Shown: positions 47,856 through 64,000, counted from the first letter of the stretch. The stretch: DNA of 64,000 bases from Dehalococcoidia bacterium (GCA_965197645.1 OZ240219.1:832001-896000), one strand, 5' to 3'. Notes: generated from the letters alone by a model not told the origin. Program-made: numbers and translations.

Positions 47856-49031
47856 ATGGAGTTTCAGTTCACTCCCGAAGAAGAATCGTTCCGTAGAGAG
47901 CTTAAAGAGTTCTTTGCTAACGAGAAGCCGGAGGGGTGGGACGATCTCCAGCCCGACATCTACGCCGAAGGCAAGCTCGAAGCGCAGATGCGGGACAAGC
48001 TGGGCCAGCGGGGCTGGCGCACCATGGCGTGGCCGAAGGAGTACGGCGGCCGGGACGCTTCCACCATGATGCAGCTCATCTTCCACGAAGAGCTCACCTA
48101 CAATGAGGGCAGAAGGATAGAGGACCAGGGCACCGATTTCATTGGCCCCACCATCATTCTCCACGGCTCCGACGAGCAGAAACAGCAGCACCTCAACGGA
48201 ATCTCAACGGGCGCGGAGTTCTGGTGCCAGGGCTTCAGCGAGCCGGAGGCCGGCTCCGACCTGGCAGGTCTACAGACCAGGGCCGTCGAGGACGGGGACT
48301 ATTATGTGATCAACGGCCGCAAGATATGGACCAGCTACGCCCACCTGGCCAACTGGATGCACATCCTGACCCGCACCGACTCCGACGCTCCCAAACACAG
48401 GGGCATAACCTATTTCCTCCTGGACATGAGCACCCCCGGCATCAGCATTCGGCCCCTGATCACCATGGCCAACGAGCACACCTTCAACGAGGTCACCTTC
48501 GACGACGTACGGGTGCCCAAGGAGAACATGCTTGGCGAGAAGAACCGGGGCTGGTACGTCGCTATGGCCGCGCTGGACTATGAGAGATCGGGCGTGGAGT
48601 TTCCCGCCGCCGCCAGGAGATTGCTGGACCAGCTTGTAGAGTACGCCAAGGAGACCCGGGTCAACGGCGGCGGCCTGGCCGACGACCCCGCTGTTTCCGC
48701 CAAGCTGGCGGAACGGGCCGTCGAGATCGAGGTCAGCCGGCTCCTCTGCTACCGGATCGGCTGGATGCAGGGCAAGGGCATGGTCCCCAACCAGGAGGCC
48801 TCCATCGGTAAGCTTTTCGGCTCCGAAATGTCCCAGCGGCTGGCCCAGACGGGCATGGAGGTGCTGGGCCTGACCGGCCAGCTCCAGAGCGATTCCAAGT
48901 GGAACGTCTTGAAGGGCAAGGTGGAGAACTTCTACCTGAACTGCATCCCCATGACCATCTACTCCGGCACCTCAGAAGTCCAGAGAGGCATAATCGCCCG
49001 CCGCGGACTTGAACTGCCACGGGGCACCTAG
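47856..49031 (+). CDS. Acyl-CoA dehydrogenase, alpha-type subunit (FadE26/29/30-like) no. 1
   Basis: WPKEYGG, WCQGFSEPEAGSDLA, KHRGIT, FNEV.FDDV and SGTSEVQR motifs. Confidence 0.93.
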   Translation: MEFQFTPEEESFRRELKEFFANEKPEGWDDLQPDIYAEGKLEAQMRDKLGQRGWRTMAWPKEYGGRDASTMMQLIFHEELTYNEGRRIEDQGTDFIGPTIILHGSDEQKQQHLNGISTGAEFWCQGFSEPEAGSDLAGLQTRAVEDGDYYVINGRKIWTSYAHLANWMHILTRTDSDAPKHRGITYFLLDMSTPGISIRPLITMANEHTFNEVTFDDVRVPKENMLGEKNRGWYVAMAALDYERSGVEFPAAARRLLDQLVEYAKETRVNGGGLADDPAVSAKLAERAVEIEVSRLLCYRIGWMQGKGMVPNQEASIGKLFGSEMSQRLAQTGMEVLGLTGQLQSDSKWNVLKGKVENFYLNCIPMTIYSGTSEVQRGIIARRGLELPRGT

Positions 49032-49102
49032 GCCGTTCATCAGGCCGGCGTCATAACCCGGTGTTCATCACGTGGATGCCGGTTCCCAGGCTACCTCGAC
49101 AG

Positions 49103-50488
49103 ATGCTAAGACTTGCGAAGCTCCGAATGGTCACCGTGCCCATTCTGGCGGTGAGCCTGCTGGTCTTGGCCTGCGGCGGCAAGGTTGATTCAGAGCCGAC
49201 CTCCACCCCTCGACCTTCACCCACACGCACTCCCACGGCCTCGCCTACCCCATCAGTGCCCGCGCCTATTCCAGCGGAGTTTTCGGGCATGCCCACCGGT
49301 TGGATCAGCCAGTTCGGCTCCCCATCGGTTGACCGGGGCGAGGGGATAGCCCTGGACAGCCGGGGCAACGCCTACGTAGTGGGCACCGTCGGTGGGGAGC
49401 TGCCCGGGCAGAGCAGTCAAGGCTCGCGGGACGCGTTTCTTCGAGTGTACGGCAGAGATGGAGCGGTGCTGACGACCCTGCAGTTCGGTACGCCGGAATC
49501 GGACATCGCCACGTCCGTCGCGTTGGACGGGGACGGTAACGTCTACTTGGCAGGGACAACGGCGGGCGCTCTAGGGAACCAGGGTCACTTCGGTGGCGAG
49601 GACGGGTTCATCCGGAAGCTGTCCTCCGATCTGACGGAGACGTGGACGGTACAGTTGGGGTCCAGCGAAGATGAGAAGGTCGGCGGGATAGCGGTGGACG
49701 GAGAGGGCAATGTTTACATGGCGGGCGGAACGGAAGGGGAACTCGCGGGAGTTTCCAGCTCGGGTGGAACGGATGCCTTCGTTGCAAAGCTCAGCCCCAA
49801 CGGTCAGCAGGTGTGGCTGGCCCAGTTCGGGTCCGGCGCGGACGACGAGGCCGCGGGCGTAGCTATAGATTCCTCAGGCAACGTGTACGTGGCGGGCCAG
49901 ACCAAGGGCAAGCTGCCCGGCCAGGATAGCGGGGGCCGTACCGACGTCTTTCTCCGAATATACGACCCGTCAGGTGGGGAGGTCTGGACCGTCCAGTTCG
50001 GAACCGTCGAGGACGACCGGGCTACGGGAGTGATTCTCGACTCCGACGGCAACGTATACGTGGTGGGGGTCACGGGTGGAGCGTTGCCCGGCCAGGAGAG
50101 CTCGGGTGACGACGATGGCTTCATTCGCAGGTACGATACCGAGGGACAGGAGGTCTGGACGGCCCAGCTTGGCTCCAACCGGGTTGACGAGATCATCGGC
50201 GTGGCGCTGATGCAGTCCCAGGCCATCTACGTGGCGGGCTGGACCATGGGCGTGGTAGAGGGAACCTCCAGCGCCATAGGCGGCGACGCTTTTCTCAGCA
50301 GGTATGACCTCACGGGGCAGGAGCAGTGGGTTGTTCAGCTCGTGACATCGGAGTTCGACTGGGCCACCGGCATAGCGGTCGATGCAGATGGGGAGATACT
50401 CGTGGTGGGCCGTACCAACAGCACCCTGCCCGGCCAAAGTAGGGCGGGCAGCACGGATGTGTTCGTCATCCAGCTGTTGGAAGAGTAG
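49103..50488 (+). CDS. Lipoprotein with SBBP-type beta-propeller repeats
   Basis: Lipobox LVLAC, Pro/Thr linker, seven repeats of W..QFG...D....IA.D..GNVYVAG.T.G.LPGQ...G..D.F. Confidence 0.88.
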   Translation: MLRLAKLRMVTVPILAVSLLVLACGGKVDSEPTSTPRPSPTRTPTASPTPSVPAPIPAEFSGMPTGWISQFGSPSVDRGEGIALDSRGNAYVVGTVGGELPGQSSQGSRDAFLRVYGRDGAVLTTLQFGTPESDIATSVALDGDGNVYLAGTTAGALGNQGHFGGEDGFIRKLSSDLTETWTVQLGSSEDEKVGGIAVDGEGNVYMAGGTEGELAGVSSSGGTDAFVAKLSPNGQQVWLAQFGSGADDEAAGVAIDSSGNVYVAGQTKGKLPGQDSGGRTDVFLRIYDPSGGEVWTVQFGTVEDDRATGVILDSDGNVYVVGVTGGALPGQESSGDDDGFIRRYDTEGQEVWTAQLGSNRVDEIIGVALMQSQAIYVAGWTMGVVEGTSSAIGGDAFLSRYDLTGQEQWVVQLVTSEFDWATGIAVDADGEILVVGRTNSTLPGQSRAGSTDVFVIQLLEE

Positions 50489-50502
50489 CCGTCTCCGGTC
50501 CG

Positions 50503-51648
50503 ATGGACTTCAGCCTTACCTCCGAAGAGAAAGTGTTCCGTACCGAGCTTCGGGCCTTCCTCGATGCTTCAATGTCGGCCATTCCCCAACCCCTGCCGGA
50601 CGAAGACTACTACCTGCTGGCCAGGAAGGTGCGCTCAGGTCTAGGCGACCGAGATTGGCTGACCCTGGGTTGGCCCGTTGATCATGGCGGTGACGAATCT
50701 CACGTAAAAGACCTGATACTGCTGGAGGAGATGGCCTATCACCTGGTCCCTCGTGCCAACGACTACGCCACACACCTTGCCGGCCGCCTGATCGGGTCCT
50801 ACGGCACCCAAGCCCAGGCTGACCGGCACTTGGCGGCCCTGGCCGGGGGCCGGGAGTGGTGGTCTACCGGCTTCACCGAGCCCCTGGCCGGGTCACATCT
50901 GTCCAACATCAAGACCAGGGCATTGGACAAGGGCGACCATTACATCGTCACCGGACAGAAGGATTACAGCCACTGGGCGCCGGACTCGGGCTGGTGCCTC
51001 CTGCTGGTCAGGACCGAGCCGGCAACAGAAGGGTCAGAGGGACTGAGTATGCTCCTCCTGGACATGGCCTCGCCCGGCCTGTTTCTCAACCCGGTGGAGT
51101 ACATGACGGGCCGCGTCTTCAGCGAGATCTTCCTCGACGAAGTGGTAGTCCCCAAACACAACCTGCTGGGTGAGGTTGGCCGGGGATGGCAGGTAGCAAC
51201 GGAGATTCTGGAGAGGAGCGGCCTCGGTATCGAGTACTTCGGCTGGGCCAGGAGAGCGCTGGAGCTGGCCAAAGGGTGTGCGCTGGACTTGGGCAGGGGC
51301 TCGCTTACCGACAGGAACAAGCTGGCAGAGGCCGCTATAGACATCGAGGTTAGCCGTCTGCTATCCTATCGCAACGCCTGGCTGCTCAGCCTGGACCGTC
51401 TCGGAAAGCACCATCCCTCCCTTTCGAAGACCTTCGGCGCGGAGATGTTCCAGCGGGTATCCAGGACGGCGATGGAGGTGGCGGGACTCCACTCTCAGGC
51501 CGGCGGCGCTACTAGCGATGATACGGCCATGGCGATCCGAGACCTCTACATCGAGGGACTGGCTGGTACTATACATGGGGGCAGCTCGGAGATCCATCGC
51601 AACCTGATTGCAACGACGGGCCTAGGTCTGCCGATGGCCGAACTGTAG
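50503..51648 (+). CDS. Acyl-CoA dehydrogenase, divergent alpha-type subunit no. 2
   Basis: STGFTEPLAGSHL, FSEIFLDEV and HGGSSEIHR motifs. Confidence 0.85.
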   Translation: MDFSLTSEEKVFRTELRAFLDASMSAIPQPLPDEDYYLLARKVRSGLGDRDWLTLGWPVDHGGDESHVKDLILLEEMAYHLVPRANDYATHLAGRLIGSYGTQAQADRHLAALAGGREWWSTGFTEPLAGSHLSNIKTRALDKGDHYIVTGQKDYSHWAPDSGWCLLLVRTEPATEGSEGLSMLLLDMASPGLFLNPVEYMTGRVFSEIFLDEVVVPKHNLLGEVGRGWQVATEILERSGLGIEYFGWARRALELAKGCALDLGRGSLTDRNKLAEAAIDIEVSRLLSYRNAWLLSLDRLGKHHPSLSKTFGAEMFQRVSRTAMEVAGLHSQAGGATSDDTAMAIRDLYIEGLAGTIHGGSSEIHRNLIATTGLGLPMAEL

Positions 51649-51692
51649 GGGGCCGTCTAGCTGACGCCCCCGGAGCTGGGAAGGAGCCCAAC

Positions 51693-52868
51693 ATGGACTT
51701 CTACTTCACCGACGAAGAGGAGCAGTTTCGGTCCGAGCTCAGGCAGTTTCTGGACGACAATCTACCCGACGATTGGCTGGGCCAGGAGCCCTACGACGAT
51801 GATGTCTGGGGTTTCACCCTGGAGATGCGGCGCAAGCTGGGCCAGAAGGGCTGGCTCGCCATGTCCTGGCCCAAGAAGTACGGCGGCCTGGAAGCATCCC
51901 CGGGCCAGAACGTCATCTTCGCTGAGGAGATGGGCTACTACCGGGCCCCCGGGCGGGACGTACAGGGAGTCGGCTTCCTGGGCCCCTGTCTCATGCACCA
52001 CGGCACCGAGGAGCAACGTCAGACCCACCTGAAGGCCATCACCGAGGGGACCGTGACCTGGTGCCAGGGCTTCAGCGAACCCGAGTCGGGCTCGGACCTA
52101 GCGTCCCTCCAGACCACGGCCGTCCTCGATGGCGACGAGTACGTCATCAACGGCCAGAAGATATGGTCCAGCGGCGCTCACCATTCCACCTGGTGTCATC
52201 TGCTGGCCCGCACCGACCCGGAGGCGCCCAAGCACCGGGGCATCACCTACTTCCTCATCGATATGAACACGCCGGGCTTCGACGTGCGACCGATCGAAGA
52301 CATGTCCGGCAAGCGCAGGTTCAACGAGATATTCCTGGACAACGTTCGGGCGCCCAAGGCCAACGTCATAGGAGAGGTGAACCGGGGCTGGTACGCCGCC
52401 ATGTCCACCCTGGACTTCGAACGGACCTATATCGACGCTTCAGCGAACGCCCGGCGGCTGGTGGAGGACCTGCGCGGCTACGCCGGCGAGACCGCCTACG
52501 ATGGCGGCCTGCTGCTGAACCGAGACTCGGTGCGGGGAACCCTTGCCGACATGGCCGTGGAAGCGGAAATATCCCGGCTGCTGTCCTACCGGGTGATGTG
52601 GATGCAGGGTCGGGGTATAATCCCCAACCACGAATCGTCTATAGCCAAGGCCTTCGGTTCCGAGATGCTGCAGCGCGCGGCAAACGCCGGAATGAGTGTC
52701 CTCGGTATGGCCGGCCAGCTGACCGAGGACTCCAAGTGGGCGCCTCTCCAGGGCATCGTGGAGCGGCTGTATCTAACGTCGGTGAGCAACACCATAGCCG
52801 GCGGCACCTCTGAGATTCAGCGGGGAATCATCGCCAGGCGGGGCATGGACCTGCCCAGGGGAACGTAG
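51693..52868 (+). CDS. Acyl-CoA dehydrogenase, alpha-type subunit no. 3
   Basis: WCQGFSEPESGSDLASL and AGGTSEIQR motifs. Confidence 0.93.
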   Translation: MDFYFTDEEEQFRSELRQFLDDNLPDDWLGQEPYDDDVWGFTLEMRRKLGQKGWLAMSWPKKYGGLEASPGQNVIFAEEMGYYRAPGRDVQGVGFLGPCLMHHGTEEQRQTHLKAITEGTVTWCQGFSEPESGSDLASLQTTAVLDGDEYVINGQKIWSSGAHHSTWCHLLARTDPEAPKHRGITYFLIDMNTPGFDVRPIEDMSGKRRFNEIFLDNVRAPKANVIGEVNRGWYAAMSTLDFERTYIDASANARRLVEDLRGYAGETAYDGGLLLNRDSVRGTLADMAVEAEISRLLSYRVMWMQGRGIIPNHESSIAKAFGSEMLQRAANAGMSVLGMAGQLTEDSKWAPLQGIVERLYLTSVSNTIAGGTSEIQRGIIARRGMDLPRGT

Positions 52869-52988
52869 AGAGAAGGCCTACCCCCCAAGTCGTCCGAAAA
52901 AGCCGACGTTGCGCTGCCGCAGGGAGGATGCCGGTCAGCCAGGGCGGGCGAGAAGGGTGCTATTCGTTATGGTGGAGGTAAATGGCTA

Positions 52989-54167
52989 ATGGACTTTCAC
53001 TTCACGCAAGAAGAACAACATTTCCGAATGGACGTGAGAGACCTCCTCGAGGCCGAGCTGCCGCATGACTGGGAAGGCGCCGACGAGTTCGGCAGGACCA
53101 ATGACGTCGCGATGGACCGGCACATGCGTCAGAAGCTGATCGAGCGCGATTGGCTGACCATGTCCTGGCCCAAAGAGTACGGAGGCCAGGACGCATCCCA
53201 CGTGAAACAGGCCATCTTCTCCGAGGAGATGAGCTATCATCGTGCGCCGGGCATGGACGGGTCCGGCCTTCATCTCCTGGCGCCCGCCCTGATGCATCAC
53301 GGCACCGAGGAGCAAAAGAAGAAGCATCTGGGGCCCATCGCACGCGGAGAGGTCGACTGGTGCCAGGGCTTCAGCGAGCCCGAGTCCGGCTCGGATCTGG
53401 CGTCCCTCAGGACGAAGGCAGAGTTGGACGGGGATGAGTATGTCATAAACGGCCAGAAGATATGGTCCAGCGGCGCCCACATGGCGGACTGGATTTTCGT
53501 CCTGGCTCGCACAGACCCCGACGCGCCCAAGCACCGGGGGATCACCTACTTCCTGGCCGATATGAAGACGCCCGGGATAACGGTGAAGCCGATAATCAAT
53601 CTGATCGGCGACCACCACTTCAACGAGATCTTCTTCGACGACGTCAGGGTGCCTGCCTCCAACATCGTGGGGGAGCTGAACCGGGGCTGGTACGTGGCCA
53701 TGACCACCCTCAACTTCGAGAGGGACGGGACATCCTACACCGCCAGGGCCCGAAAGGCCCTGGACGAGCTGGTCCCCTACGTCAAAGAGACCAGTTTCAA
53801 CGGCAGGCGTCTTTCGGACGACCCCGGTGTGAGGAACAAGCTAGCGGAGCTGGTCCTGGAGGTGGAGGTGAGCCGTCTGCTTGCCTATCGCATGGCGTGG
53901 CTGGTGGACAGGGGCGAGGTGCCGACCTATCAGGCCTCCACTACCAAGCTGGTCAGCACGGAGCTGCTTCTCCGGGTGGCCAACGCGGGCATGCAGATCC
54001 TGGGACTGTCGGGCCAGCTGGTGGAAGGGGACAAATGGGCGCCGTTGAGAGGCCGGTTCCACCGCATGTATTTGTGGAGCATCAGCGATCCGATAGCCGG
54101 CGGAACATCGGAGATACAGCGCAACATACTCGCTACACGCGGGCTGAGCCTGCCTAAAAGCACGTAG
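52989..54167 (+). CDS. Acyl-CoA dehydrogenase, alpha-type subunit no. 4
   Basis: WCQGFSEPESGSDLASL and AGGTSEIQR motifs. Confidence 0.93.
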   Translation: MDFHFTQEEQHFRMDVRDLLEAELPHDWEGADEFGRTNDVAMDRHMRQKLIERDWLTMSWPKEYGGQDASHVKQAIFSEEMSYHRAPGMDGSGLHLLAPALMHHGTEEQKKKHLGPIARGEVDWCQGFSEPESGSDLASLRTKAELDGDEYVINGQKIWSSGAHMADWIFVLARTDPDAPKHRGITYFLADMKTPGITVKPIINLIGDHHFNEIFFDDVRVPASNIVGELNRGWYVAMTTLNFERDGTSYTARARKALDELVPYVKETSFNGRRLSDDPGVRNKLAELVLEVEVSRLLAYRMAWLVDRGEVPTYQASTTKLVSTELLLRVANAGMQILGLSGQLVEGDKWAPLRGRFHRMYLWSISDPIAGGTSEIQRNILATRGLSLPKST

Positions 54168-54180
54168 CTGGAGAGATGTC

Positions 54181-55359
54181 ATGGAATTCCGATTCACGAC
54201 CGAGGAGGAGCAGTTCAGGGGGGACCTCAAGGGGTTTCTGAAACAGGAGCTGCCCGAGGATTGGCGCTATGGCGTCATAGAGTCGTCCGAGGAAGACGTA
54301 GAGCTGGACAGGACCATGCGAAGGAAGCTGGCCCGGAAGGGCTGGCTGACCATGGGATGGCCCAAGGAGTACGGCGGACAGGACGCATCTCCCATCACCC
54401 AGTTCATCTTCAACGAGGAGATGGCCTACCATCGCGCTCCGGGCCGGGACGTCTCCGGCATCGGCATGCTGGGACCCACCCTCATGGTCCACGGCAGCGA
54501 GGAGCAGAAACGCAAGTACCTGGGTGACATCGCCCGTGGCGAGATCAACTGGTGCCAGGGCTTCAGCGAGCCCGGTTCAGGTTCCGACCTGGCATCCCTT
54601 CAGACCCGGGCCGACGAGGATGGCGACGATTACGTCATCAATGGACAGAAGATATGGACCAGCGGCGCACACCATGCCGATAGGTTCTTCATGCTCGCCC
54701 GCACCGATACCGAAGCTCCCAAGCACAGGGGCATCACCTTCTTCCTGGGTGATATGAAACAGCCCGGCATCGAGATACGTCCCATAGTCAGCATGACCGG
54801 TCGCCACAGTTTCAACGAGGTCTTCTTCGACGATGTGCGGGTATCCAAGAGAGACGTGGTGGGCGAGACGAATAGGGGTTGGTACGTGGCCATGACCCTG
54901 CTGGGATTCGAAAGGTCCATCGTCGAGTATCCTGCCGCCGCTCGAAGGGCGTTGGAAGAGCTGACCGACTTCGCCAGGGACACCCGGCGCAACGGCTCGG
55001 CCCTGATAGACGATGCCGGCGTGCGCAACAAGCTGGCGGAGATGGCGATAGAGGTGGACGTGGCCCGGCTGCTCTGCTACCGCGTGGCCTGGTTGTCCAG
55101 CCGGGGCGGTGTTCCCGACTCCGAAGGCTCCATGGCCAAGTCCTTTAGCACGGAGCTGATGCGCCGGTTGGGCCAGACCGGCATGGAGGTCATGGGCCTG
55201 TACGGCCAGCTGGGCAAGGGTTCCAAGTACGCCCCGTTGCAGGGAGGGTTCCGGCACGTCTATTTGGAGAGCGTGGGGCTCTGCATCGCCGGCGGCACGT
55301 CGGAAATTCAACGACACGTCATAGCCACCCGGGGACTGGGGCTGCCCCGGACGGGGTGA
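54181..55359 (+). CDS. Acyl-CoA dehydrogenase, alpha-type subunit no. 5
   Basis: WCQGFSEPGSGSDLASL and AGGTSEIQR motifs. Confidence 0.93.
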   Translation: MEFRFTTEEEQFRGDLKGFLKQELPEDWRYGVIESSEEDVELDRTMRRKLARKGWLTMGWPKEYGGQDASPITQFIFNEEMAYHRAPGRDVSGIGMLGPTLMVHGSEEQKRKYLGDIARGEINWCQGFSEPGSGSDLASLQTRADEDGDDYVINGQKIWTSGAHHADRFFMLARTDTEAPKHRGITFFLGDMKQPGIEIRPIVSMTGRHSFNEVFFDDVRVSKRDVVGETNRGWYVAMTLLGFERSIVEYPAAARRALEELTDFARDTRRNGSALIDDAGVRNKLAEMAIEVDVARLLCYRVAWLSSRGGVPDSEGSMAKSFSTELMRRLGQTGMEVMGLYGQLGKGSKYAPLQGGFRHVYLESVGLCIAGGTSEIQRHVIATRGLGLPRTG

Positions 55360-55533
55360 GGCACCGGGCGTAACGGTGTCGTCGGTCAGGCCAAATCATC
55401 ATCAATCGAGGTAGAGATATGAATGGGTGTGTGGTATCCTACCGAACGGCTTGAGGAAGGCCCCAACAAGAGTGTAATCCAAGACCGAATCACGCATTGC
55501 TAACGGCAACCAGGCAAACAAGGAGGTGTGGTA

Positions 55534-56667
55534 ATGGACCTAGGTCTTAGCGAAGAACAAGAGATGTTGAAGAGGACGGCTCGAGAGCTTCTGGAACGAG
55601 AGTGCCCCAAGACCCTGGTTAGGGACATGGAGGAGGACGATAAGGGATACTCCCCCGAGCTTTGGAAGCAGTTTGCCGATTCGGGATTCCTGGGGCTTCC
55701 CTTCCCAGAGCAGTACGGCGGGACCGGGTTCAGCTTCGTAGACCTGGCGATCCTGCTGGAGGAGTTCGGTAGGGCCCTTGTGCCTGGCCCCTACCTGTAT
55801 AACGTGGCCCTATCGGGCATGGCGATAGCCGATGCGGGCACCGAGGAGCAGAAGCAGGAGCATCTGCCCAAGATAGCCAGTGGCGAGTCCATCTTCACCT
55901 TCGCTCTTACCGAGCCCAGCGGCCGGTGGGACGCCGAGGGAGTGGGCTTGAGTGCGACAGCGGACGGCGATGACTTCATCCTCAACGGCGTGAAGCTGTT
56001 CATCCCCGACGCCCACGTCTCCGACCAGATGCTGGTTGTGGCCCGCACCAGCGAGTCAGACGACCCCAAAGAGGGCATCACCGTTTTTATCGTCGATACC
56101 AAGAGCGAGGGAATCAACACAGAGGTGCTCCAGACCATCGCCTCGGACAAGCAGTGCGAGGTCAACCTGGATAACGTCAGGGTGCCCCGCAGCAGCGTTC
56201 TCGGCGAGGTGGACGAGGGTTGGTCCATCGTGGAGCAGGCCCTGCGCCGCGGCGCCGTGGCCAAGTGCGCCGAGATGGTGGGCAACTCGGAGCAGGTGCT
56301 GGACATAACCGTCGAGTACGCCAAGAACCGGATACAGTTCGGGCGACCCATTGGCAGCTTCCAGGCGATCCAACACCACTGCGCCAACATGGCCACCGAC
56401 GTCGATGGCTCCCGCTTCATCACATACCAGGCCGCATGGAAGCTCTCTGAAGGGCTGCCCTGCGACAAGGAGATATCCATGGCCAAGGCTTGGGTGAGCG
56501 AGGCGTGCCGTAGGGTGGACGGGCTTGGCCACCAGGTCCACGGCGGTATCGGGTTCACCAAAGAGCACGATATGCAGCTCTTCTTCCGCCGGGCCAAGCA
56601 GGCCGAGCTCTTCTTCGGGGACGCCGACTTCCATCGAGAGAAGGTGGCCCAGGAGATCGGGCTGTAA
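55534..56667 (+). CDS. Acyl-CoA dehydrogenase, beta-type subunit (FadE27/28/33-like)
   Basis: ALTEP, RIQFGRPIGSFQAIQH and QVHGGIGFT present; C-terminal LFFGDADFHR lacks the GT.E catalytic motif. Confidence 0.9.
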   Translation: MDLGLSEEQEMLKRTARELLERECPKTLVRDMEEDDKGYSPELWKQFADSGFLGLPFPEQYGGTGFSFVDLAILLEEFGRALVPGPYLYNVALSGMAIADAGTEEQKQEHLPKIASGESIFTFALTEPSGRWDAEGVGLSATADGDDFILNGVKLFIPDAHVSDQMLVVARTSESDDPKEGITVFIVDTKSEGINTEVLQTIASDKQCEVNLDNVRVPRSSVLGEVDEGWSIVEQALRRGAVAKCAEMVGNSEQVLDITVEYAKNRIQFGRPIGSFQAIQHHCANMATDVDGSRFITYQAAWKLSEGLPCDKEISMAKAWVSEACRRVDGLGHQVHGGIGFTKEHDMQLFFRRAKQAELFFGDADFHREKVAQEIGL

Positions 56668-57187: not shown

Positions 57188-57784
57188 ATGGTCTCCGACC
57201 CCGAGGCGCTGAGAGAGGCGATTAGCCACCTTCCCAGGGGCTTGACGGCCCACGTCGACCGCGTGGTGGACGTCGCCGTAGAGGTGGGACAACGCTTTGA
57301 GATCGATCCCGCCAGGGTGAAGGCTGCTGCTCTGCTCCACGATTTCGCTCGGCTGGTCAAGGGAGACAGGCTGCTGGAGCTTGCCGAGGAGTACGGTGTG
57401 CCCGTCACTTCCTTGGACGAGAGGATGCCGGTGTTCCTCCACGGCCCCGTCGGCGCTGAGATGGTTCGTAGAGAGCTACACGTAGAGGACGAAGAGGTGC
57501 TGCAAGCCATACGGCTTCACACCATCGGGGGCGCAGGCATGGGGCCGGTGGCGAAAGTGGTCTACCTGGCTGACAAGATCGAGCCCTCCAAGGACTCACG
57601 CTACCCATTCAACCCCGAGGTTAGGGAGCTGGCCAAGGTGGACATGGATAGGGCGATACTCAAGTTCGTCGACAACGACATATCCCGCTACATCGGTACG
57701 GGGGGTTACGTCCACCCGGCCACCATTGCGATGAGGAACGACCTTCTGACCGGCCTCGAAGCAGGGCAGGCCCTGCACCCATAA
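57188..57784 (+). CDS. yqeK: YqeK-like HD-domain Ap4A hydrolase
   Basis: H..RV, AALLHDFAR, LHGPVGA, AIRLHT.G and YLADKIEP motifs. Confidence 0.88.
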   Translation: MVSDPEALREAISHLPRGLTAHVDRVVDVAVEVGQRFEIDPARVKAAALLHDFARLVKGDRLLELAEEYGVPVTSLDERMPVFLHGPVGAEMVRRELHVEDEEVLQAIRLHTIGGAGMGPVAKVVYLADKIEPSKDSRYPFNPEVRELAKVDMDRAILKFVDNDISRYIGTGGYVHPATIAMRNDLLTGLEAGQALHP

Positions 57785-57809
57785 CATGATAGAAGAGAGA
57801 GCAGCATCT

Positions 57810-57908
57810 GAGTCCGTACCTGCGTCATTGCGAGATCCGACGAAGTCGGGTCGTGGCAATCCCGACAAGTCTGGCCGTTAATCCAGCAGAGCCGTTCCCT
57901 CCTATCCA
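57810..57908. repeat. Family A REP-like copy at the left border of the phage-like module
   Basis: GAGTCCGTACC-TGCGTCATTGCGAGATCCGACGAAGTCGGGTCGTGGCAATC plus a 3' flank similar to 13945-13990. Confidence 0.8.
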
Positions 57909-57928
57909 TCCCACAGCCCCCTGCTCCA

Positions 57929-57971
57929 GTGACATTATCTCGTTGACACCATAGAACATATATTCTATCTT
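57929..57971 (+). promoter_or_regulatory. Promoter/operator 1 of the head-packaging module (LexA-box-like palindrome between -35 and -10)
   Basis: GTGACA(57929), TTGACA(57943)-N17-TATCTT(57966); palindrome ATAGAA-catata-TTCTAT at 57951-57968. Confidence 0.75.
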
Positions 57972-58087
57972 TCGCCTATCACATTGGATTGCTCGGCCTG
58001 CTGGTTTGCATTGGAGAGAATGGAATGGAGAGGTTCCCCATTGTCATACAGCCGTGGTCGAGATTTGTCCAACGACGGGAGGAAAGC

Positions 58088-58264
58088 ATGGGCATGTTCC
58101 CCAACGCACTGAAGAAGGGTCACTGGAAGGTGGCCGCCCTGTGTCTGCTCATCGGGATGCTGCGGGTGGCGATGAGACTCTCGCGGGAGGCGCTACTGAA
58201 ACTGGTCCGTGCTGCGAGACCGGCCAACGCATCGGAGAGGAGATCGCATGTCGGAAGGCGATAG
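58088..58264 (+). CDS. Small hypothetical protein with a hydrophobic segment
   Basis: GGAGG RBS before ATG 58088; overlaps the next gene; first ORF after promoter 1. Confidence 0.5.
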   Translation: MGMFPNALKKGHWKVAALCLLIGMLRVAMRLSREALLKLVRAARPANASERRSHVGRR

Positions 58265-58595
58265 AGGAGATCGTCGCGACGGCCGAAAGACCGGCGCGCA
58301 CGACTTTTACGCCTCCGCGGTGAGCGAGGCCGAGCTATTGCGGCTCGATGAGGCCCAGGAGATGCAGGGCCTGGACGGCGAGATCGCCCTGTTGAGGACC
58401 AGGCTGCTCCGGCTGGCCGAAAACCAGCCGGAGGACACCGCTCTGCTCTTCCGGGGCCTGGAGCTGTTGGTCAAGGCCGTCGGTGCCAAGTACCGCCTAT
58501 CGTCCAAGTCCACAGAGGACCTGAGTACGGCGATAGAAGAGGTGTTGAAGAGCATCGGTGGGGCCATGGGACTGGAGGGTTTCAGTGGGAACTGA
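58248..58595 (+). CDS. Hypothetical helical protein, putative terminase small subunit
   Basis: GAGGAG RBS; KTGAHDFYA resembles the NA.KHG.Y motif of some TerS proteins; LDGEIALLR helix; lies upstream of TerL. Confidence 0.55.
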   Translation: MSEGDRGDRRDGRKTGAHDFYASAVSEAELLRLDEAQEMQGLDGEIALLRTRLLRLAENQPEDTALLFRGLELLVKAVGAKYRLSSKSTEDLSTAIEEVLKSIGGAMGLEGFSGN

Positions 58596-58815
58596 CGGAC
58601 TGAAGCAGACCATCGCCAGATTCAAGAAGGCTCGAAGCGGGCCTGTGAAGGCAGGTGTCAACCTCAACCCCGATTCGGCCTTCGAGGCGATGCTGGACAT
58701 TCGCCTTCAGGAGCTTCGACGCCAGGTGGGAGAAGTGAGGAGCCGGGTCAACGGCCTGTTCTTCTTCGTACTCGGTGCGGCGATCGTGCAGGTTGCTCTC
58801 GGCTTCTTCGCTTAG
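58585..58815 (+). CDS. Small coiled-coil protein with a C-terminal TM helix
   Basis: GGAGG then GTG 58585; LQELRRQVGEVRSRVNG followed by LFFFVLGAAIVQVALGFFA. Confidence 0.65.
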   Translation: MGTDGLKQTIARFKKARSGPVKAGVNLNPDSAFEAMLDIRLQELRRQVGEVRSRVNGLFFFVLGAAIVQVALGFFA

Positions 58816-58820
58816 CTCAA

Positions 58821-60214
58821 ATGCCCATCAAGCATCGACTGCGGCCCTATCAGGCGGAGATCGGAGCTGCCGTACTGGACAGCGTTCTCAACAAGAGAGG
58901 GCTGACCTTTTCGGTCATCATCTCCAGGCAGGGAGGCAAGAACGAGCTTTCGGCCCAGCTGGAGGTGCTGCTCCTGACCCTGTTCATGAACATCGGTGGC
59001 AGCGCCGTGAAGGCGTCGCCTACTTTCAAGCCCCAGACGGTCAACAGCATCCTGAGGCTCAAGGAGCGGCTCGACGATGCGGGCTACGGAGGGATATGGG
59101 TGTCCGAGATGAGCTACATGGTGAGGCTAAACAGGGCACGGCAGATGTTCTTCAGCGCCGATTCGTCCAGCCACGTCGTGGGCGCCACCGCCGACGTCCT
59201 GCTGGAGATGGACGAAAGCCAGGACATCTCCAAGGAGAAGTACAACAAGGAGTTCAAGCCGATGGGGGCGGCCACCAACGTGACCACGGTCCACTTCGGC
59301 ACCGCCTGGGACGACTCAACCCTCCTGGAGGAGGTGAAGCAGTCCAACCTGGAGCTGGAACGCAAGGACCACGTACGCAGGCACTTCGAGTTCGACTGGC
59401 AGGAGGTCGCCAAACATGTGCCCGAGTACGGGAGGTACGTCGAAGGCGAACGGCAGCGGCTGGGGAAGGACCACCCACTGTTTCTGACCCAGTACGGTCT
59501 GTTGCCGCTTCACGGAGGCGGAGGTTTCCTGAACGCTGCTCAGCGAGCCCAGCTGCAGGGCGATCACCATCGCCTAAGCAGGCCGGAGGATGGAAAGGTC
59601 TACGTAGCCGGCATCGATCTGGCGGGAGAGGCCGAAGAGGGCCGGGACGCCGAGCTTCGGGCCATCAAGCCCAGGCAGGACTCGACGGTGGTGACCATCG
59701 GTGAGCTGGACTACTCCCAGGCGGCGCCCCCGGCGGATGAGCCGGCGATCAGAATAGTGGAGCATTACTGGTGGACTGGCCAACCCCACACCGAACTCTA
59801 CTCTCGCCTCGTTGACCTGCTGAAGACGGTGTGGCGATGCAGGCGTGTCGTTGTGGACGCCACGGGTGTCGGGCAGGGGTGAGCAGCTTTCTGGTCCGGG
59901 CCCTGGGATCCACCGTCGTCTCTCCCTTCGTGTTTACGTCCCAAAGCAAGTCGAAGCTGGGGTTCGATCTGCTGGCGGCCGTCAACTCGGGAAGGATGAA
60001 GATGTACCGTCCCGATGGCACGGAGGAGTACCGGCAGTTCTGGACGGAGGTTGAGAGGGCCAAGAGCTTCTACCGGGCCAATCAGACCGTCAACTTCTAC
60101 GTCGACCCCAGCGATGGTGATGACGACTTCCTGATGAGCATGGCACTGCTGGCCCAGTCGGCTGGCTACAGGCGCAGGAAGGCTTCGGGCAGGCTACGGA
60201 AGGGCTACGAGTGA
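58821..60214 (+). CDS. Terminase large subunit, interrupted by a -1 frame change at 59876-59882
   Basis: Walker A SRQGGKNE, Walker B LLEMDESQD, FGTA, nuclease motifs YVAGIDLAG, DST and VVVDATGVG. After TGA 59880 the -1 frame continues VSSFL...FT..SKS.LG...GDDDFLMSMAL. Confidence 0.85.
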
Positions 60215-60288
60215 TGCCGGAGGGCTGAAAGGCGAAGACGAAGCAGCGAAGAGGTTAGCCGGAGTTATGGATTGCGCAGGAGAAGCAG

Positions 60289-60633
60289 ATGGATTTGCGG
60301 GAGTTCAGGGATCTGGTCGTCGAGGGCGTGGAAAGCACGGAACATTCCGCTCCCTCTCAGCCCGACCCAGGCCGAGACAGCCGCCCGGAGTTCGTTAGAT
60401 ACCGGGACGTCGGCTGCGAGGTATCGGAGTCGTGTCTCAAGTGTCCGTTGCCCCAGTGCCGCTACGACGATCCCGGCTGGCTGCGCAGGCAAATCAAGGA
60501 GAAGCGGGACCGGCAGGTGATAGAGGCCCACGAAGGAGAGGGGCTGGCGCCATCGGAGCTGGCGAAGAGATTTGGAGTGAGCCGCCGCACCATCCACCGG
60601 ATACTCAAAGCGCACAAAGGTCAAAGAAGATAG
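60289..60633 (+). CDS. Cys4-motif plus C-terminal HTH DNA-binding protein (Mor-like HTH)
   Basis: YRD.GCEVSESCLKCPLPQCRYD followed by RDRQV...ELAKRFGVSRRTIHRIL. Confidence 0.8.
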   Translation: MDLREFRDLVVEGVESTEHSAPSQPDPGRDSRPEFVRYRDVGCEVSESCLKCPLPQCRYDDPGWLRRQIKEKRDRQVIEAHEGEGLAPSELAKRFGVSRRTIHRILKAHKGQRR

Positions 60634-60654
60634 TAAAGATTTGGAGATATCACC

Positions 60655-61977
60655 ATGGAAAACATGACATTGCCGCAGCAGATCGAGAGGATGGACCGGG
60701 ACAGGCTGAGGATCTACGCCGAAAACCTGGACTTCTACAATGGCCTCCAGTGGCCCGGCAGGGCCCGCCGGGGCGAGCGGCGCCTCACCTTCAACTACTC
60801 CAAGGCCTTCATCGATAAGATCACCTCATATCTCATGGCCGACCTCACCATTTCCGTCGAACCCCTGGACAGCACCGAGGAGGCGGCTCGCAAGGCCGGG
60901 GAGATCGACGAGGTCATACAGCAGGTCTACGAGGCCAACCATCTCCAGCAGCTCGATTTCGATACGGAGCTGGACACCGCCATCCTGGGCGACGGGGTCT
61001 ACAAGGTCACCTGGGACCCCCGGGAGCAGCAGGTGAGGGTCTCCGCGCCCGACGTGCAGGGCATCTACGTGTGGTGGATTGGAGACGATGTCACTCGCGT
61101 CTGGAGGGTCGCCAGCCGGTACAAGCTCTCGGCCGAGGAGGTCGAGCTTCTCTACGGCGTCAAGAACGCAGCCTCCGGGTTGAACGGCAGGAACAGGGAA
61201 TCGATGGTTGTGGAGGTGTGGACCGCCACCGGCCTGGAGATATGGATCGACAACGCGCTCCACGAGCAACGACCCAACCCCTACGGCTTCATCCCCTTCA
61301 TCGTGTTTCCCAACGTGAGGGAGCCAAAGAAATTCTGGGGCGTCTCCGACATCCCGGCCATCATCGAACCGTCCAGGGAGCTGAACCGGGCCTTCTCCCA
61401 GCTATCGATGATCCTGGAGCTGTCCGGCAACCCGATAGCCGTGCTGGAGAACGTCGAGGACGCCCAGGACATAGCGGTGCAGCCGGGGGCCGTCTGGGAG
61501 TTGCCGGAGCGGGCCCGGGCCTATCTGCTGGACCTGCTTCAGGGTGGCGGAGTAAAGCTTCACACCGATTTCATAGGCCTGGTGTACAGGGCCATTCACG
61601 ATCTATCGGAATCGCCCCGAACCAGCTTCGGCGATAACAGCCAGGGGCTGTCCGGCGTCGCGCTGGAGATGGAGCTGAATCCCCTGATCCAGAAGATCCG
61701 CCGCAAGCGACTGGTCCGGACGGCCGTTTATCAGCGCCGCATAGCGATGATCCTCAAGATACTGGAGCAGAAGCGGGGACTGAGCTTCGGTAACGTGCGT
61801 TCCCGCATCGTCTGGGGGCCGATACTGCCCCAGGACAGGGGCAAGCTGGCCCAGGAGGAAGAGCTGCTGGTGCGATCGGGCATCCACAGCCGCCGCCGCT
61901 CCATGGAAAACCTGGGCGTCCCCGATCCTGAAGCAGAGCTGACGCGGATCAGGGAGGAGGACCCTGCTGGCGCCTAG
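60655..61977 (+). CDS. Phage portal protein (SPP1 gp6-like)
   Basis: DFY.G.Q, RLTFNY.K..IDK, NPYGFIPF..FPN, G.SDI, SGVALE, W..ILP.D and LGV.DPEAEL.RI motifs. Confidence 0.9.
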   Translation: MENMTLPQQIERMDRDRLRIYAENLDFYNGLQWPGRARRGERRLTFNYSKAFIDKITSYLMADLTISVEPLDSTEEAARKAGEIDEVIQQVYEANHLQQLDFDTELDTAILGDGVYKVTWDPREQQVRVSAPDVQGIYVWWIGDDVTRVWRVASRYKLSAEEVELLYGVKNAASGLNGRNRESMVVEVWTATGLEIWIDNALHEQRPNPYGFIPFIVFPNVREPKKFWGVSDIPAIIEPSRELNRAFSQLSMILELSGNPIAVLENVEDAQDIAVQPGAVWELPERARAYLLDLLQGGGVKLHTDFIGLVYRAIHDLSESPRTSFGDNSQGLSGVALEMELNPLIQKIRRKRLVRTAVYQRRIAMILKILEQKRGLSFGNVRSRIVWGPILPQDRGKLAQEEELLVRSGIHSRRRSMENLGVPDPEAELTRIREEDPAGA

Positions 61978-62798
61978 TCTCGTTTCCTGGCCAGATACGT
62001 ATAGTAGTTGCAGGCGGCGAAGAAGACGCCTCGGTCCGCGTTGGAGCGCTGGTCCTCCAGCCAGGCCTCCACCTGTTCCGAGGGCAGGACGCCGGCGTCG
62101 GCCACCATCGGGGCGTAGATCTCGGCGAAGTTCTTCCAGAACCTACCGCTCCCGACCTCCGAGTAGACGTTGGGCGTGACGCTTATCAGGTCCAGCCCAA
62201 CCTCTCCCAGCAGCTGCGGCATCTCCCGCATTACCAGGGGGTTACTGACCATCACCCCTATCATCCCCTCCTCCATCTTCCTCCCCAGCTCCCTGTCCGA
62301 GCTGCCGAAGGAGAGGGAGGCGTAGTCCCCATCGAATATGGCAATCGTGCCGCCGGTCCTGACCAGCCGGGACATCTCCTTGAGCACGGCCGCCGGTTCC
62401 GTGACGTGGCTTATCAGCGTATGGGCCATGGCTGCATCGAAGCCGGCGTCCGCCAGGCCGGTGGAGTGAGCATCTCCGATCCGAAACTCGATTTTCCCGC
62501 CGATTCCCTCCTCGTCGGCCAGACGTCGGGCGACCTCTATGAAGATGGGACTGTGGTCAACCCCGACGATCCGACCCTGAAAAGCGGGTCGTTGAGCCAG
62601 CCTCCGGGCACCAACTCCCGTCCCGCATCCCATGTCCAACACGCTGGCGTGGGGATCGAGGGCGATGGCTTCCAGGTAATCGTTCATCCACCGGATGTAG
62701 TTGGGGTCCCGACCTCGGAACTCCAGCCGCTCGATCATCGAGTTTAACGTGGAGTCGTCCAGGTCGGTGGCGTATTGAAAGACATCTCGAGGGGTCAT
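61974..62798 (-). CDS. Class I SAM-dependent methyltransferase (UbiE/Methyltransf_11-like)
   Basis: VLDMGCGTG, GVD.S, GDAH, FD..MAHTL.SHV and R.GG motifs; GGGAGG RBS; stop overlaps the portal stop (CTAG). Confidence 0.92.
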   Translation of the reverse strand: MTPRDVFQYATDLDDSTLNSMIERLEFRGRDPNYIRWMNDYLEAIALDPHASVLDMGCGTGVGARRLAQRPAFQGRIVGVDHSPIFIEVARRLADEEGIGGKIEFRIGDAHSTGLADAGFDAAMAHTLISHVTEPAAVLKEMSRLVRTGGTIAIFDGDYASLSFGSSDRELGRKMEEGMIGVMVSNPLVMREMPQLLGEVGLDLISVTPNVYSEVGSGRFWKNFAEIYAPMVADAGVLPSEQVEAWLEDQRSNADRGVFFAACNYYTYLARKRD

Positions 62799-62857
62799 GG
62801 CTACCTCCCGGTCCAATTATAACCCTGCGATTCGTCGTCGTTGGAAGGTCGGGCGTT

Positions 62858-62901
62858 GTGACACCAACCGGTTGACTGTATTAGAACTGATATTCTACTC
62901 T
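62858..62901 (+). promoter_or_regulatory. Promoter/operator 2 of the head-packaging module
   Basis: GTGACA(62858), TTGACT(62872)-N18-TACTCT(62896); palindrome TAGAA-ctgata-TTCTA at 62882-62897. Confidence 0.72.
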
Positions 62902-62940
62902 GGCCACACGTAAATCAGCCCTATTTCACGGGAGGTGTCT

Positions 62941-63378
62941 ATGGCCGAGGATACGATGGAGGAAGTGGTGGAACAGACCGAGACGGATGTAGAGGACGCT
63001 CCGGGCTTCCAGGCCGATACCGGTACAAGCGTAGAGGAGCTGGAGGGCCAGGTCAGCCGGCTTCGCGCCGACCTGGAAAAGCGGGATGAGGAGCTGGCTT
63101 CGTTGAGAGAGCAGATGACCAACTCCGCGGCCCGTTACAGGACAGCCATACTGTCCGGCGCACCCGAGGTGCCCGAGGAGCTGGTCCGCGGAGACACGGT
63201 GGAGGAGCTGGACGCATCCCTGGTCCAGGCCAGGGAGATTGTAGAGAAGGTCGCCCAACGGCTCGGTTCCCAGGTGGCATCCGAGCAGGTGCCCGCAGGC
63301 TCGCCGCCTCGTAGGCCGCCGGACCTGGTCGCAATGTCGCCCCACGAAAAGATCCTGTACGCACTGCAGAGATCGTAA
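62941..63378 (+). CDS. Putative capsid scaffolding protein
   Basis: Acidic N-terminus, coiled coil, PEELV.G.T.EE, VPAG.PPR...MSP.EKI; immediately before the capsid gene; GGAGG RBS. Confidence 0.7.
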   Translation: MAEDTMEEVVEQTETDVEDAPGFQADTGTSVEELEGQVSRLRADLEKRDEELASLREQMTNSAARYRTAILSGAPEVPEELVRGDTVEELDASLVQAREIVEKVAQRLGSQVASEQVPAGSPPRRPPDLVAMSPHEKILYALQRS

Positions 63379-63422
63379 ACACACAGCAGCCGGAGTTACC
63401 GAGTAGCGAAAGGAGCTAAGAC

Positions 63423-64000
63423 ATGGCTTTAACTTTAGCGGAGGGCGCAAAGCTCTCAAACGACGTACTAGTTGCCGGGGTAATCGAGACCATCATCAAC
63501 GAAAGTCCGGTCCTTCAGGCTATGCCCTTCATCGAGATAGTGGGCAACAGCCTGACCTACAACCGGGAGAACGCCGCACCTTCAGTGAGCTTCTACAACG
63601 TGGGCGACACCTGGACAGAGTCCACCCCCACCTTTACCCAGGTGAGCGCCACGCTGAAGATACTGGGCGGAGATGCCGACGTGGACAACTACCTCTCCTC
63701 CACTCGCAACAACGTGCAGGACCTGGAAGCGGCGGTGGTCCAGCTCAAGGCCAAGGCCCTTCAGCAGAAGTTCGACGACACCTTCATCAACGGTGAAGTA
63801 ACCACCGATGCCAAGTCCTTCGACGGCATCGAAGAGCTGACAGTCACCAAGCAAATAGTGAGCATGGGCGCCAACGGCGGCACCCTCACCCTCGAGAAGC
63901 TGGACGAGCTGATAGATAGGGTGAAAGGCGGCAAACCCGATATGCTCATCATGAGCAAGCGCAGCCGCAGGAAGCTCTCCTCGCTGGCCCGGGCCGCAGG
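63423..64000 (+). CDS. Major capsid protein (HK97-fold), truncated by the window end; absent from the ORF track
   Basis: AAGGAG then ATG 63423: MALTLAEGAKLSNDVLVAGVIETIINESPVLQAMPF.EI.GNSLTYNRE...LKILGGDADVD...FINGE...FDGI...LDELID; open to the edge. Confidence 0.88.
   Translation, partial: MALTLAEGAKLSNDVLVAGVIETIINESPVLQAMPFIEIVGNSLTYNRENAAPSVSFYNVGDTWTESTPTFTQVSATLKILGGDADVDNYLSSTRNNVQDLEAAVVQLKAKALQQKFDDTFINGEVTTDAKSFDGIEELTVTKQIVSMGANGGTLTLEKLDELIDRVKGGKPDMLIMSKRSRRKLSSLARAA

Follow-up and report, generated by a model that had tools for sequence, protein, structure and literature searches.

Two intergenic sites in the chromosome of a Dehalococcoidia bacterium (GCA_965197645.1) carry the same composite promoter, one ahead of the packaging genes and the other ahead of the capsid genes of a small gene set that looks derived from a short-tailed phage. 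Both lie in a stretch of 64,000 nucleotides, hereafter the window, which corresponds to positions 832001–896000 of the single contig of this genome (G000:C1; 3,211,320 bases, 60.8% G+C). The promoter combines -35 and -10 elements with a palindrome resembling the operators of the SOS repressor LexA and with a hexamer, GTGACA, just upstream of the -35. The reading that we favour, with a probability of roughly 60%, is that a dual-input promoter, answering to host LexA and to a dedicated activator, heads each unit of a particle gene set that would have become fixed in the chromosome.

An earlier note on this DNA had described both sites as GTGACA-N7-GTTGAC-N4/5-TAGAAC-N4-ATTCTA, a description that proved exact, coordinates included (Table 1). 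The note had also placed the palindrome between a TTGAC(A/T) -35 and a TA-type -10, overlapping the latter. This arrangement is seen at both sites, where the 16-bp imperfect palindrome TAGAAC-N4-ATTCTA occupies the -35/-10 spacer and its closing TA provides the first two bases of the -10. Promoter 1, TTGACA-17-TATCTT, was called by a promoter scanner and matches the consensus at 10 of 12 positions, while promoter 2, TTGACT-18-TACTCT, fell below the threshold of that scanner and was read directly from the sequence. The bases between the elements differ from site 1 to site 2 (TTATCTC and CCAACCG, ACCA and TGTAT, ATAT and TGAT, respectively). Since spacers and flanks differ, what the copies have in common is limited to the named elements, and they are not the product of a recent duplication. 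The two sites are copies of one sigma-70-type promoter heading the packaging and the capsid units. Because the spacing is N4 in one copy and N5 in the other, the composite escapes an ungapped repeat search, which returned nothing else of note; an Rfam scan of positions 57500–64000 gave no match at E up to 0.1.

In the whole window, TAGAAC-N4-ATTCTA occurs exactly only at these two sites. When up to one mismatch was allowed, the genome contained three forward matches (both sites and one copy with a single mismatch), as compared with 1 + 2 in the backwards control. GTGACA-N7-GTTGAC and TAGAA-N6-TTCTA were each found genome-wide at the two sites only. A relaxed form of the composite, with which further members of the regulon were sought in the genome, showed no excess over the reversed control (10 matches versus 7); among the 10, only the two sites described here are both intergenic and ahead of genes of the module.

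The palindrome fits the SOS box of the host. Domain searches of the genome returned one LexA_DNA_bind match and one RecA match, and the LexA open reading frame (ORF) of 215 amino acids displays, in its translation, an A-G cleavage site (AAG) as well as the Ser and Lys motifs. A perfect AGAAC-N4-GTTCT is present at only two positions of the genome, one 12 nt upstream of the lexA ATG (AGAACACCAGTTCT) and the other 20 nt upstream of a radical-SAM/HhH gene. Both cluster boxes depart from this consensus by the identical single G-to-A change, as had been noted before. With up to one mismatch, 48 sites were found, 20 of them intergenic on a rough gene map. They include boxes ahead of uvrA (AGAACGGTATTTCT, about 90 nt upstream, whose right half, TTTCT, is changed at the same position as the cluster boxes), of two IMS-family (Y-family polymerase) genes, of a DUF5131 gene and of an SPL-like radical-SAM gene, such host boxes standing 20–90 nt ahead of the uvrA, polymerase, radical-SAM and DUF5131 genes; a tandem pair of boxes precedes an ORF of 108 amino acids. 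A check proposed in the earlier note, namely whether lexA, uvrA and recA carry the box, therefore has a graded answer: perfect at lexA, within one mismatch at uvrA and weaker at recA. As a side observation, candidate sites of the SOS regulon lie at G000:C1:12757, 1811342/1811360, 1954375, 2227248, 1723342, 2952644 and 1903278; the radical-SAM/HhH gene is divergent from a gene for an Mrr-type nuclease, and an 88-aa HTH_3 protein is a further candidate member.

A matrix built from nine host boxes, both cluster sites being excluded, was scored over some 3.2 million positions. It ranked site 1 seventh and site 2 fourteenth in the genome, both above the site upstream of recA (TAGTACATTTGTGCGA), which was likewise outside the training set and came 17th; 14 of the 17 top positions are intergenic. 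The training boxes had been chosen by likeness to the consensus, so that these ranks show fit to the model and not independence from the consensus. In related genomes, a lexA box of the GAAC-N4-GTTC type was present in 10/10 and 5/5 other cluster-bearing genomes, making 16 of 16 Dehalococcoidia with the present one, and its eight-base core was perfect in 8/10 and 5/5 of them. The half-site variants met in the clusters (ATTCT, GTGCT, GTACT, AGTAC and AGCAC) recur at host SOS genes, and in one relative the lexA box itself contains ATTC (AGAACGAACATTCG). All this makes LexA a moderately probable binder of the cluster boxes.

Conservation of the composite was followed in the 80 best capsid loci from relatives (1.26 Mb). 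The pattern used was relaxed to [GC][TC]G[ACT]CA, N6–9, TT[GC]NN, N4–7 and a 14-mer box with at most three mismatches to AGAAC-N4-GTTCT, of which at most one in the right half. It matched 66 times, as compared with 4 times in the same sequences reversed. Sixty of the 66 matches are on the gene strand, no more than 1500 nt upstream of a cluster gene, and are spread over 51 of the 80 loci; the gene behind them encodes the capsid protein (31 sites), the scaffold (20), the adaptor (5), the small ORF of the packaging block referred to below as orfB (2), the terminase (1) or the helix-turn-helix (HTH) protein (1). Among these 60 sites the box is perfect in 12 and has one mismatch in 29, two in 17 and three in 2. 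The right half-site is mostly GTTCT (37), followed by ATTCT (16) and GTGCT (3), and the left one AGAAC (26), AGTAC (9) or AGCAC (5). The upstream element, present in all 60 by construction of the pattern, reads GTGACA in 28, GTGCCA in 14 and GCGACA in 8, with TTGAC (30), TTGCC (10) and TTGCG (8) as the commonest -35 sequences. At 57 of the 60 sites a TAnnnT abuts the box, 44 of them with the TAnnnT beginning at the last base of the box and the other 13 with it beginning one base further on.

In most of these loci, no packaging block is present within 9 kb of the capsid block. In five complete genomes the capsid and terminase genes, the latter a single frame of 467–549 amino acids, are separated by about 16, 53, 360, 406 and 410 kb, and in four of these genomes a composite stands 1.0–1.15 kb upstream of the terminase; none was found upstream of the distant terminase of L147 at the thresholds used. 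In most related genomes every block of the gene set is preceded by the palindrome, a predicted operator, which often has the perfect form. The proposals of the earlier note that the motif would be kept in orthologous upstream regions, and that the separation into blocks with promoters of their own is old and maintained, both stood up to this comparison, each block having its own copy even where the blocks are 17–411 kb apart. Co-repression of the packaging and capsid blocks, also suggested there, is supported as far as sequence analysis goes, by the fit to the host boxes and by conservation. Behind four more composites on the gene strand there is no known cluster gene. Two of these four, at L062:14303 and L064:16250, have perfect AGAAC-N4-GTTCT boxes, lie downstream of the tail gene and are followed after about 400 nt by a gene for a transglutaminase-core protein (218–221 amino acids), a possible member of the regulon; with the query used, no such gene was found in G000.

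Several observations weigh against the proposal that a LexA and activator promoter heads every unit. No composite was detected ahead of a cluster gene in 29 of the 80 loci, 28 having no gene-strand match at all; several of the 29 are without upstream sequence and several are one base off (e.g. ATGACA or ACGACA for GTGACA). Three loci (L068, L070 and L083) have a rearranged promoter, GTTCTTGACT...AGAACGTCTATACT, from which GTGACA is missing, which implies promoter turnover inside a single genus. This variant, about 90–150 nt upstream of the scaffold gene, shows near-consensus -35 and -10 elements with degenerate half-sites over both. Six others (L108, L109, L117, L121, L125 and L129) keep GTG[AC]CA-N8-TT[CA]GA without a box ahead of the capsid gene. 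The lexA gene of this clade nevertheless has a perfect CGAACATGCGTTCG in all five genomes checked, so that the box can be absent for reasons other than the absence of LexA; a conserved CACCATCG is found about 30 nt downstream of the GTG[AC]CA-N8-TT[CA]GA sequence. Moreover, several clades whose lexA keeps CGAAC...GTTCG show a degenerate left half-site in the cluster box (CGCAC, AGTAT, AGTAC), and one subclade has CGAACATGGGTTCG at lexA versus AGTAC-N4-GTTCT at the capsid promoters. The details of the lexA box are therefore not mirrored by the cluster box, a want of covariation that speaks against LexA without being decisive. The G-to-A change, found in both boxes here and as ATTCT in 16 of the 60 orthologous sites, could mean that the binder prefers RTTCT. 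Finally, the large terminase gene is frameshifted in this genome, and in this strain the production of particles may have stopped or be in decay even though both promoters are intact.

With regard to the frameshift, one base is missing at about 59870–59873 by comparison with L052 and L056, which splits the terminase into frames of 353 and 127 amino acids; the orthologues are single frames of 462–549 amino acids. Run X1, in which 99% of the sampled words are present, yielded a contig that shows no difference from the window over 57772–61069. As this run may be the source of the assembly, the identity provides no independent confirmation. Contigs of X3, X5 and X7, strains diverged by about 3%, have one extra base at the frameshift. 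A contig of X3 also has 2371 other letters between the HTH and portal genes (window 60623–60643), another insertion between blocks of the set. Among the runs listed as containing the stretch, none is on record as RNA.

Part of these observations would be expected if the palindrome were the operator of a dedicated regulator, either the HTH protein of the cluster or an unlinked factor, that merely resembles an SOS box. The composite is specific to the cluster and an HTH gene is conserved inside it. Such a regulator would also be consistent with the better conservation of the right half-site, with ATTCT in 16 of 60 sites, and with the clade in which lexA boxes are normal and the capsid promoter has no palindrome. 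However, the better conservation of the right half is explained by its overlap with the -10, and a dedicated operator would not be expected to rank 7th and 14th under a matrix derived from host boxes only, to share its variant half-sites with host SOS genes or to read as a perfect AGAAC-N4-GTTCT in 12 orthologous sites. GTGACA, in addition, already offers a site for a dedicated factor. We consider this explanation unlikely, albeit one that deserves to be taken seriously.

GTGACA appears to be a signal of its own. It is not at the host SOS promoters examined, and its conservation in the clade without the box indicates that it is separate from the latter and seemingly more widely kept. The pattern GTG[AC]CA-N8-TTGAC matched six times in the genome and not once in the reversed control; four of the matches are intergenic, two of which are the sites described here. 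The two extra intergenic sites, both without a box, showed no link to particle genes: one (G000:C1:1920219, L154:1220) precedes an operon encoding multiubiquitin, ThiF (E1-like) and DUF6527 proteins and the other (G000:C1:2128445, L155:1446) an ORF of 237 amino acids. Since it is kept where the box is missing, GTGACA probably serves a dedicated activator.

By position and domain, a candidate for this role is the small HTH protein encoded beside the portal gene (Table 1), inferred to bind GTGACA. It has a C-x5-C-x2-C-x4-C motif ahead of a C-terminal HTH, and the four cysteines are invariant in 11 of 11 orthologues; the motif could be a zinc or an iron-sulfur site. Besides weak matches to HTH_23 and Sigma70_r4, this Cys4-HTH protein matches PHROG 836, annotated as 'late transcriptional activator' (E 5.6e-6), and its gene adjoins the portal gene in all ten loci that hold the packaging block. 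The nearest sequence clusters are mostly from Chloroflexota, and comparison of the alignment with PDB profiles gave only weak generic HTH matches (E of 0.037 or above); the family has no relative of solved structure. Mor and C are the late activators of Mu-like phages. Like them, the Cys4-HTH protein is small, has a C-terminal HTH and is encoded within phage-derived genes, and as with Mor/C the cis element here adjoins the upstream side of a -35 which certain clades have in a poor form (TTGCC, TTCCC). The protein, however, shows no significant membership of the Mor/C family, and to our knowledge an invariant Cys4 motif is not a feature of the latter.

The gene set itself looks like a class-wide, integrase-less and vertically distributed collection of particle genes derived from a short-tailed phage. 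The capsid protein was found in 37 of 61 sampled relatives at 54–80% identity, mostly as one match per genome, as compared with less than 40% identity for the best match in a cultured phage. A profile of 21 orthologues detected it, again mostly as a single match, in 236 of the 401 class genomes with a completeness of at least 90% and in 130 of 207 genera, a tally that includes one genome (G237) flagged as unpublished. Its distribution follows families: 9/9 genomes in f1, 21/23 in f6, 31/34 in f16 and 7/7 in f30 contain it, as against 0/34 in f22, 0/11 in f24 and 0/10 in f29. In a species-representative collection, relatives of the capsid protein are present in at least 571 stretches, and record titles name Dehalococcoidia or Chloroflexota among the matches listed. 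Gene order is kept in the 80 loci but is interrupted by inserts, between portal and scaffold (0.16–5.6 kb) and also between capsid and adaptor. Host flanks recur across genera, the HD gene upstream being found in L052 as well and the MFS gene downstream in six loci.

These features bear on the possibility that the cluster is simply a prophage of the SOS-inducible kind, perhaps a defective one, with the two sites as its late promoters and without long-term ownership by the host. LexA-controlled prophages are well known; every recognisable gene of the set is a phage structural or packaging gene, and the terminase frameshift would suit a defective element. Nevertheless, searches of ORFs of at least 90 amino acids against Pfam and PHROGs, from the HD gene to the MFS transporter, revealed no integrase, repressor, replication or recognisable lysis gene, and the nearest tRNA, which has no other within 20 kb of the cluster beside it, is found some 5 kb past the latter, host genes intervening. 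Neither the mostly single-copy, family-wise occurrence of the capsid gene throughout the class, with shared host flanks, nor the distance of up to 411 kb between blocks in relatives, nor the low identity to cultured phages is what a prophage would lead one to expect, and we regard this explanation as improbable. The absence of integrase, replication and recognisable lysis genes, taken together with presence in 236 of 401 genomes, points instead to an element akin to gene transfer agents (GTAs). As in GTAs, structural and packaging genes occur here without genes for integration, replication or lysogeny, their spread is consistent with families and mostly single-copy, and they are flanked by host genes; unlike what is asked of a GTA, not all essential genes are intact, owing to the frameshifted large terminase. 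Even less probable, and indeed very unlikely, is that a strong promoter architecture was simply used twice and that the palindrome plays no part in regulation. In favour of this, both core elements are good sigma-70 matches, and one of them, the -10, is overlapped by the right half of the palindrome. Promoter spacers, however, are not normally constrained in sequence, and this one is kept across families while neighbouring bases change, converging on the host SOS consensus.

Table 1. Promoter elements and genes at the two sites, numbered from the first base of the window
Feature	Position	Strand	Basis or remark
Site 1	GTGACA 57929-57934, N7, GTTGAC 57942-57947, N4, TAGAAC 57952-57957, N4, ATTCTA 57962-57967	+	Read from the window
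Site 2	GTGACA 62858-62863, N7, GTTGAC 62871-62876, N5, TAGAAC 62882-62887, N4, ATTCTA 62892-62897	+	Read from the window
Upstream element U (GTGACA), promoter 1	57929..57934	+	8 nt before TTGAC of the -35
-35 TTGACA, promoter 1	57943..57948	+	Promoter scan
LexA-type operator 1, TAGAACATATATTCTA	57952..57967; core AGAAC-N4-ATTCT 57953-57966	+	Predicted; pattern and matrix scans
-10 TATCTT, promoter 1	57966..57971	+	Promoter scan; shares last two operator bases
Upstream element U (GTGACA), promoter 2	62858..62863	+	Genome pattern scan
-35 TTGACT, promoter 2	62872..62877	+	Read directly from the sequence
LexA-type operator 2, TAGAACTGATATTCTA	62882..62897	+	Predicted; pattern and matrix scans
-10 TACTCT, promoter 2	62896..62901	+	Read directly from the sequence
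HD-domain protein	57188-57784		Host gene upstream of the cluster; Pfam
orfB, conserved small ORF, coiled-coil-like	58209..58595	+	Start uncertain; first conserved gene of the packaging block
Large-terminase-like gene, two frames (353 + 127 aa)	58821..60214	+	Terminase_6C E 9e-4, below cut-off
Cys4-HTH protein, 114 aa	60289..60633	+	HTH_23, Sigma70_r4; PHROG 836
Portal protein	60655..61977	+	PF05133 E 7e-17; phrog_64 E 3e-34
SAM-dependent methyltransferase	61974..62816	-	Likely start ATG 62800-62798; divergent from promoter 2
Scaffold-like protein	62935..63378	+	Likely start ATG 62942 behind GGGAGG; phrog_1793 'head scaffolding' E 5e-3, weak
Major capsid protein, 296 aa	63423..64000, plus 313 bases past the window end	+	phrog_212 E 2.5e-72; PF05065; SU10_MCP

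The gene set spans about 9.5 kb and continues past the end of the window with an SU10-type adaptor, a tail protein of 663 amino acids and an ORF of 102 amino acids, after which comes the MFS transporter. Behind site 1 there are other small ORFs in addition to orfB. The latter has no Pfam or PHROG match; its relatives adjoin the terminase gene in seven loci (tblastn), and it could be the small terminase. The scaffold-like gene is conserved ahead of the capsid gene in related loci, and the methyltransferase gene sits between portal and scaffold, where those loci hold the other inserts. Matches of the methyltransferase and of the HTH protein in PADLOC were generic domain matches. Upstream of the cluster, positions 47856–56667 contain six ORFs on the + strand of about 380–392 amino acids, a possible array of paralogues; the last (55528–56667), which is the only one scanned, encodes an acyl-CoA dehydrogenase and is a host gene.

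If a LexA and activator promoter does head each unit, the following mechanism can be proposed. The single, self-cleaving LexA of the host would bind the box and block RNA polymerase; repressors that act by occlusion typically have their operators over the core promoter, as here. Upon DNA damage, RecA-stimulated cleavage of LexA would free the packaging and the capsid/tail promoters together. GTGACA, at about -47, would be the site of a cluster-specific activator, the Cys4-HTH protein being the best candidate. Expression would then need both the loss of LexA and the presence of the activator, which, as a product of the first block, would reinforce the operon that encodes it. Operators with the G-to-A change are probably weaker than the one at lexA, and would be leaky or open early. 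DNA damage would thus probably switch particle production on. One may go further and imagine, at somewhat less than even odds, a short-tailed GTA-like system kept vertically throughout the class, whose scattered blocks form one regulon by virtue of a LexA operator and a Cys4 (metal- or redox-sensing?) HTH activator, and in which damage, gated by a second signal, triggers particles and DNA exchange.

Dehalococcoidia, a mostly uncultured class that counts the organohalide respirers among its members, occur abundantly in marine and subsurface habitats, and gene exchange among them is poorly known. As far as the literature search covered, no GTA-like system has been described in Dehalococcoidia or Chloroflexi, nor a LexA box on such a cluster in Dehalococcoidia. 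If the broader reading, of a class-wide GTA-like system, is true, it would be without precedent in Chloroflexota, and also the first case of LexA acting directly on every structural promoter. An operator tying particle genes to the SOS response makes a testable prediction, namely that DNA damage should induce particles. The two-element promoter may also be used as a signature with which to find unlinked genes (lysis, fibres, regulators) throughout the class.

A LexA-type operator on genes of phage origin is in itself of a known kind; what sets the predicted operators described here apart is that copies stand on every scattered block of a class-wide, domesticated set of particle genes and are paired with a cluster-specific element. 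LexA operators of the form GAAC-N4-GTTC (Cheo boxes) have reportedly been found in Dehalococcoides ethenogenes. The cluster boxes share with them the type of palindrome and its spacing, but the former have ATTC in place of GTTC, stand at promoters of phage-derived structural genes instead of repair genes and are always paired with the non-SOS element GTGACA. In the tectivirus GIL01 of Bacillus thuringiensis, host LexA, and not a phage repressor, is said to act on the phage promoters, for which a phage-encoded co-repressor is needed. GIL01, however, is a self-replicating temperate phage, whereas the present gene set has no replication or lysogeny module and its operator is copied onto scattered structural blocks.

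Among GTAs, a likeness in gene content is seen with FpGTA of Faecalibacterium prausnitzii, an experimentally supported short-tailed GTA whose particles of about 40 nm contain about 9 kb of host DNA, according to the main text of its description (PMC12946183). As presented there, FpGTA is likewise a small operon of short-tailed-phage origin that encodes both terminase subunits (small and large), portal, scaffold and capsid, is fixed in its host genus and has a second locus elsewhere in the chromosome, which may be compared with the scattered blocks found here. The host belongs to another phylum and the likeness is one of gene content; FpGTA particles are evidenced, whereas those considered here are predicted from the genes. 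That main text contains neither the word 'LexA' nor the word 'promoter', and thus describes no operator (PMC12946183).

In Rhodobacter capsulatus, LexA acts on RcGTA indirectly, via cckA, and is needed for production, while GafA is the direct activator (PMC6363796, citing Kuchinski et al. 2016); in the GTA cluster of Dinoroseobacter shibae, LexA sites have been predicted in silico (PMC6473078). On the accounts given in these articles, RcGTA resembles the system proposed here in being a multi-locus particle genome under host control, with a dedicated activator and an input from the SOS regulator. It differs in being long-tailed and alphaproteobacterial, in the sign of the LexA effect, which is opposite to that of a repressor on structural promoters, and in its activator, GafA being unrelated in size to the 114-aa Cys4-HTH protein. 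The composite promoters described here accordingly add a case in which LexA is predicted to act directly on the structural promoters of a domesticated phage remnant, whereas in the best-studied GTA its action is indirect.

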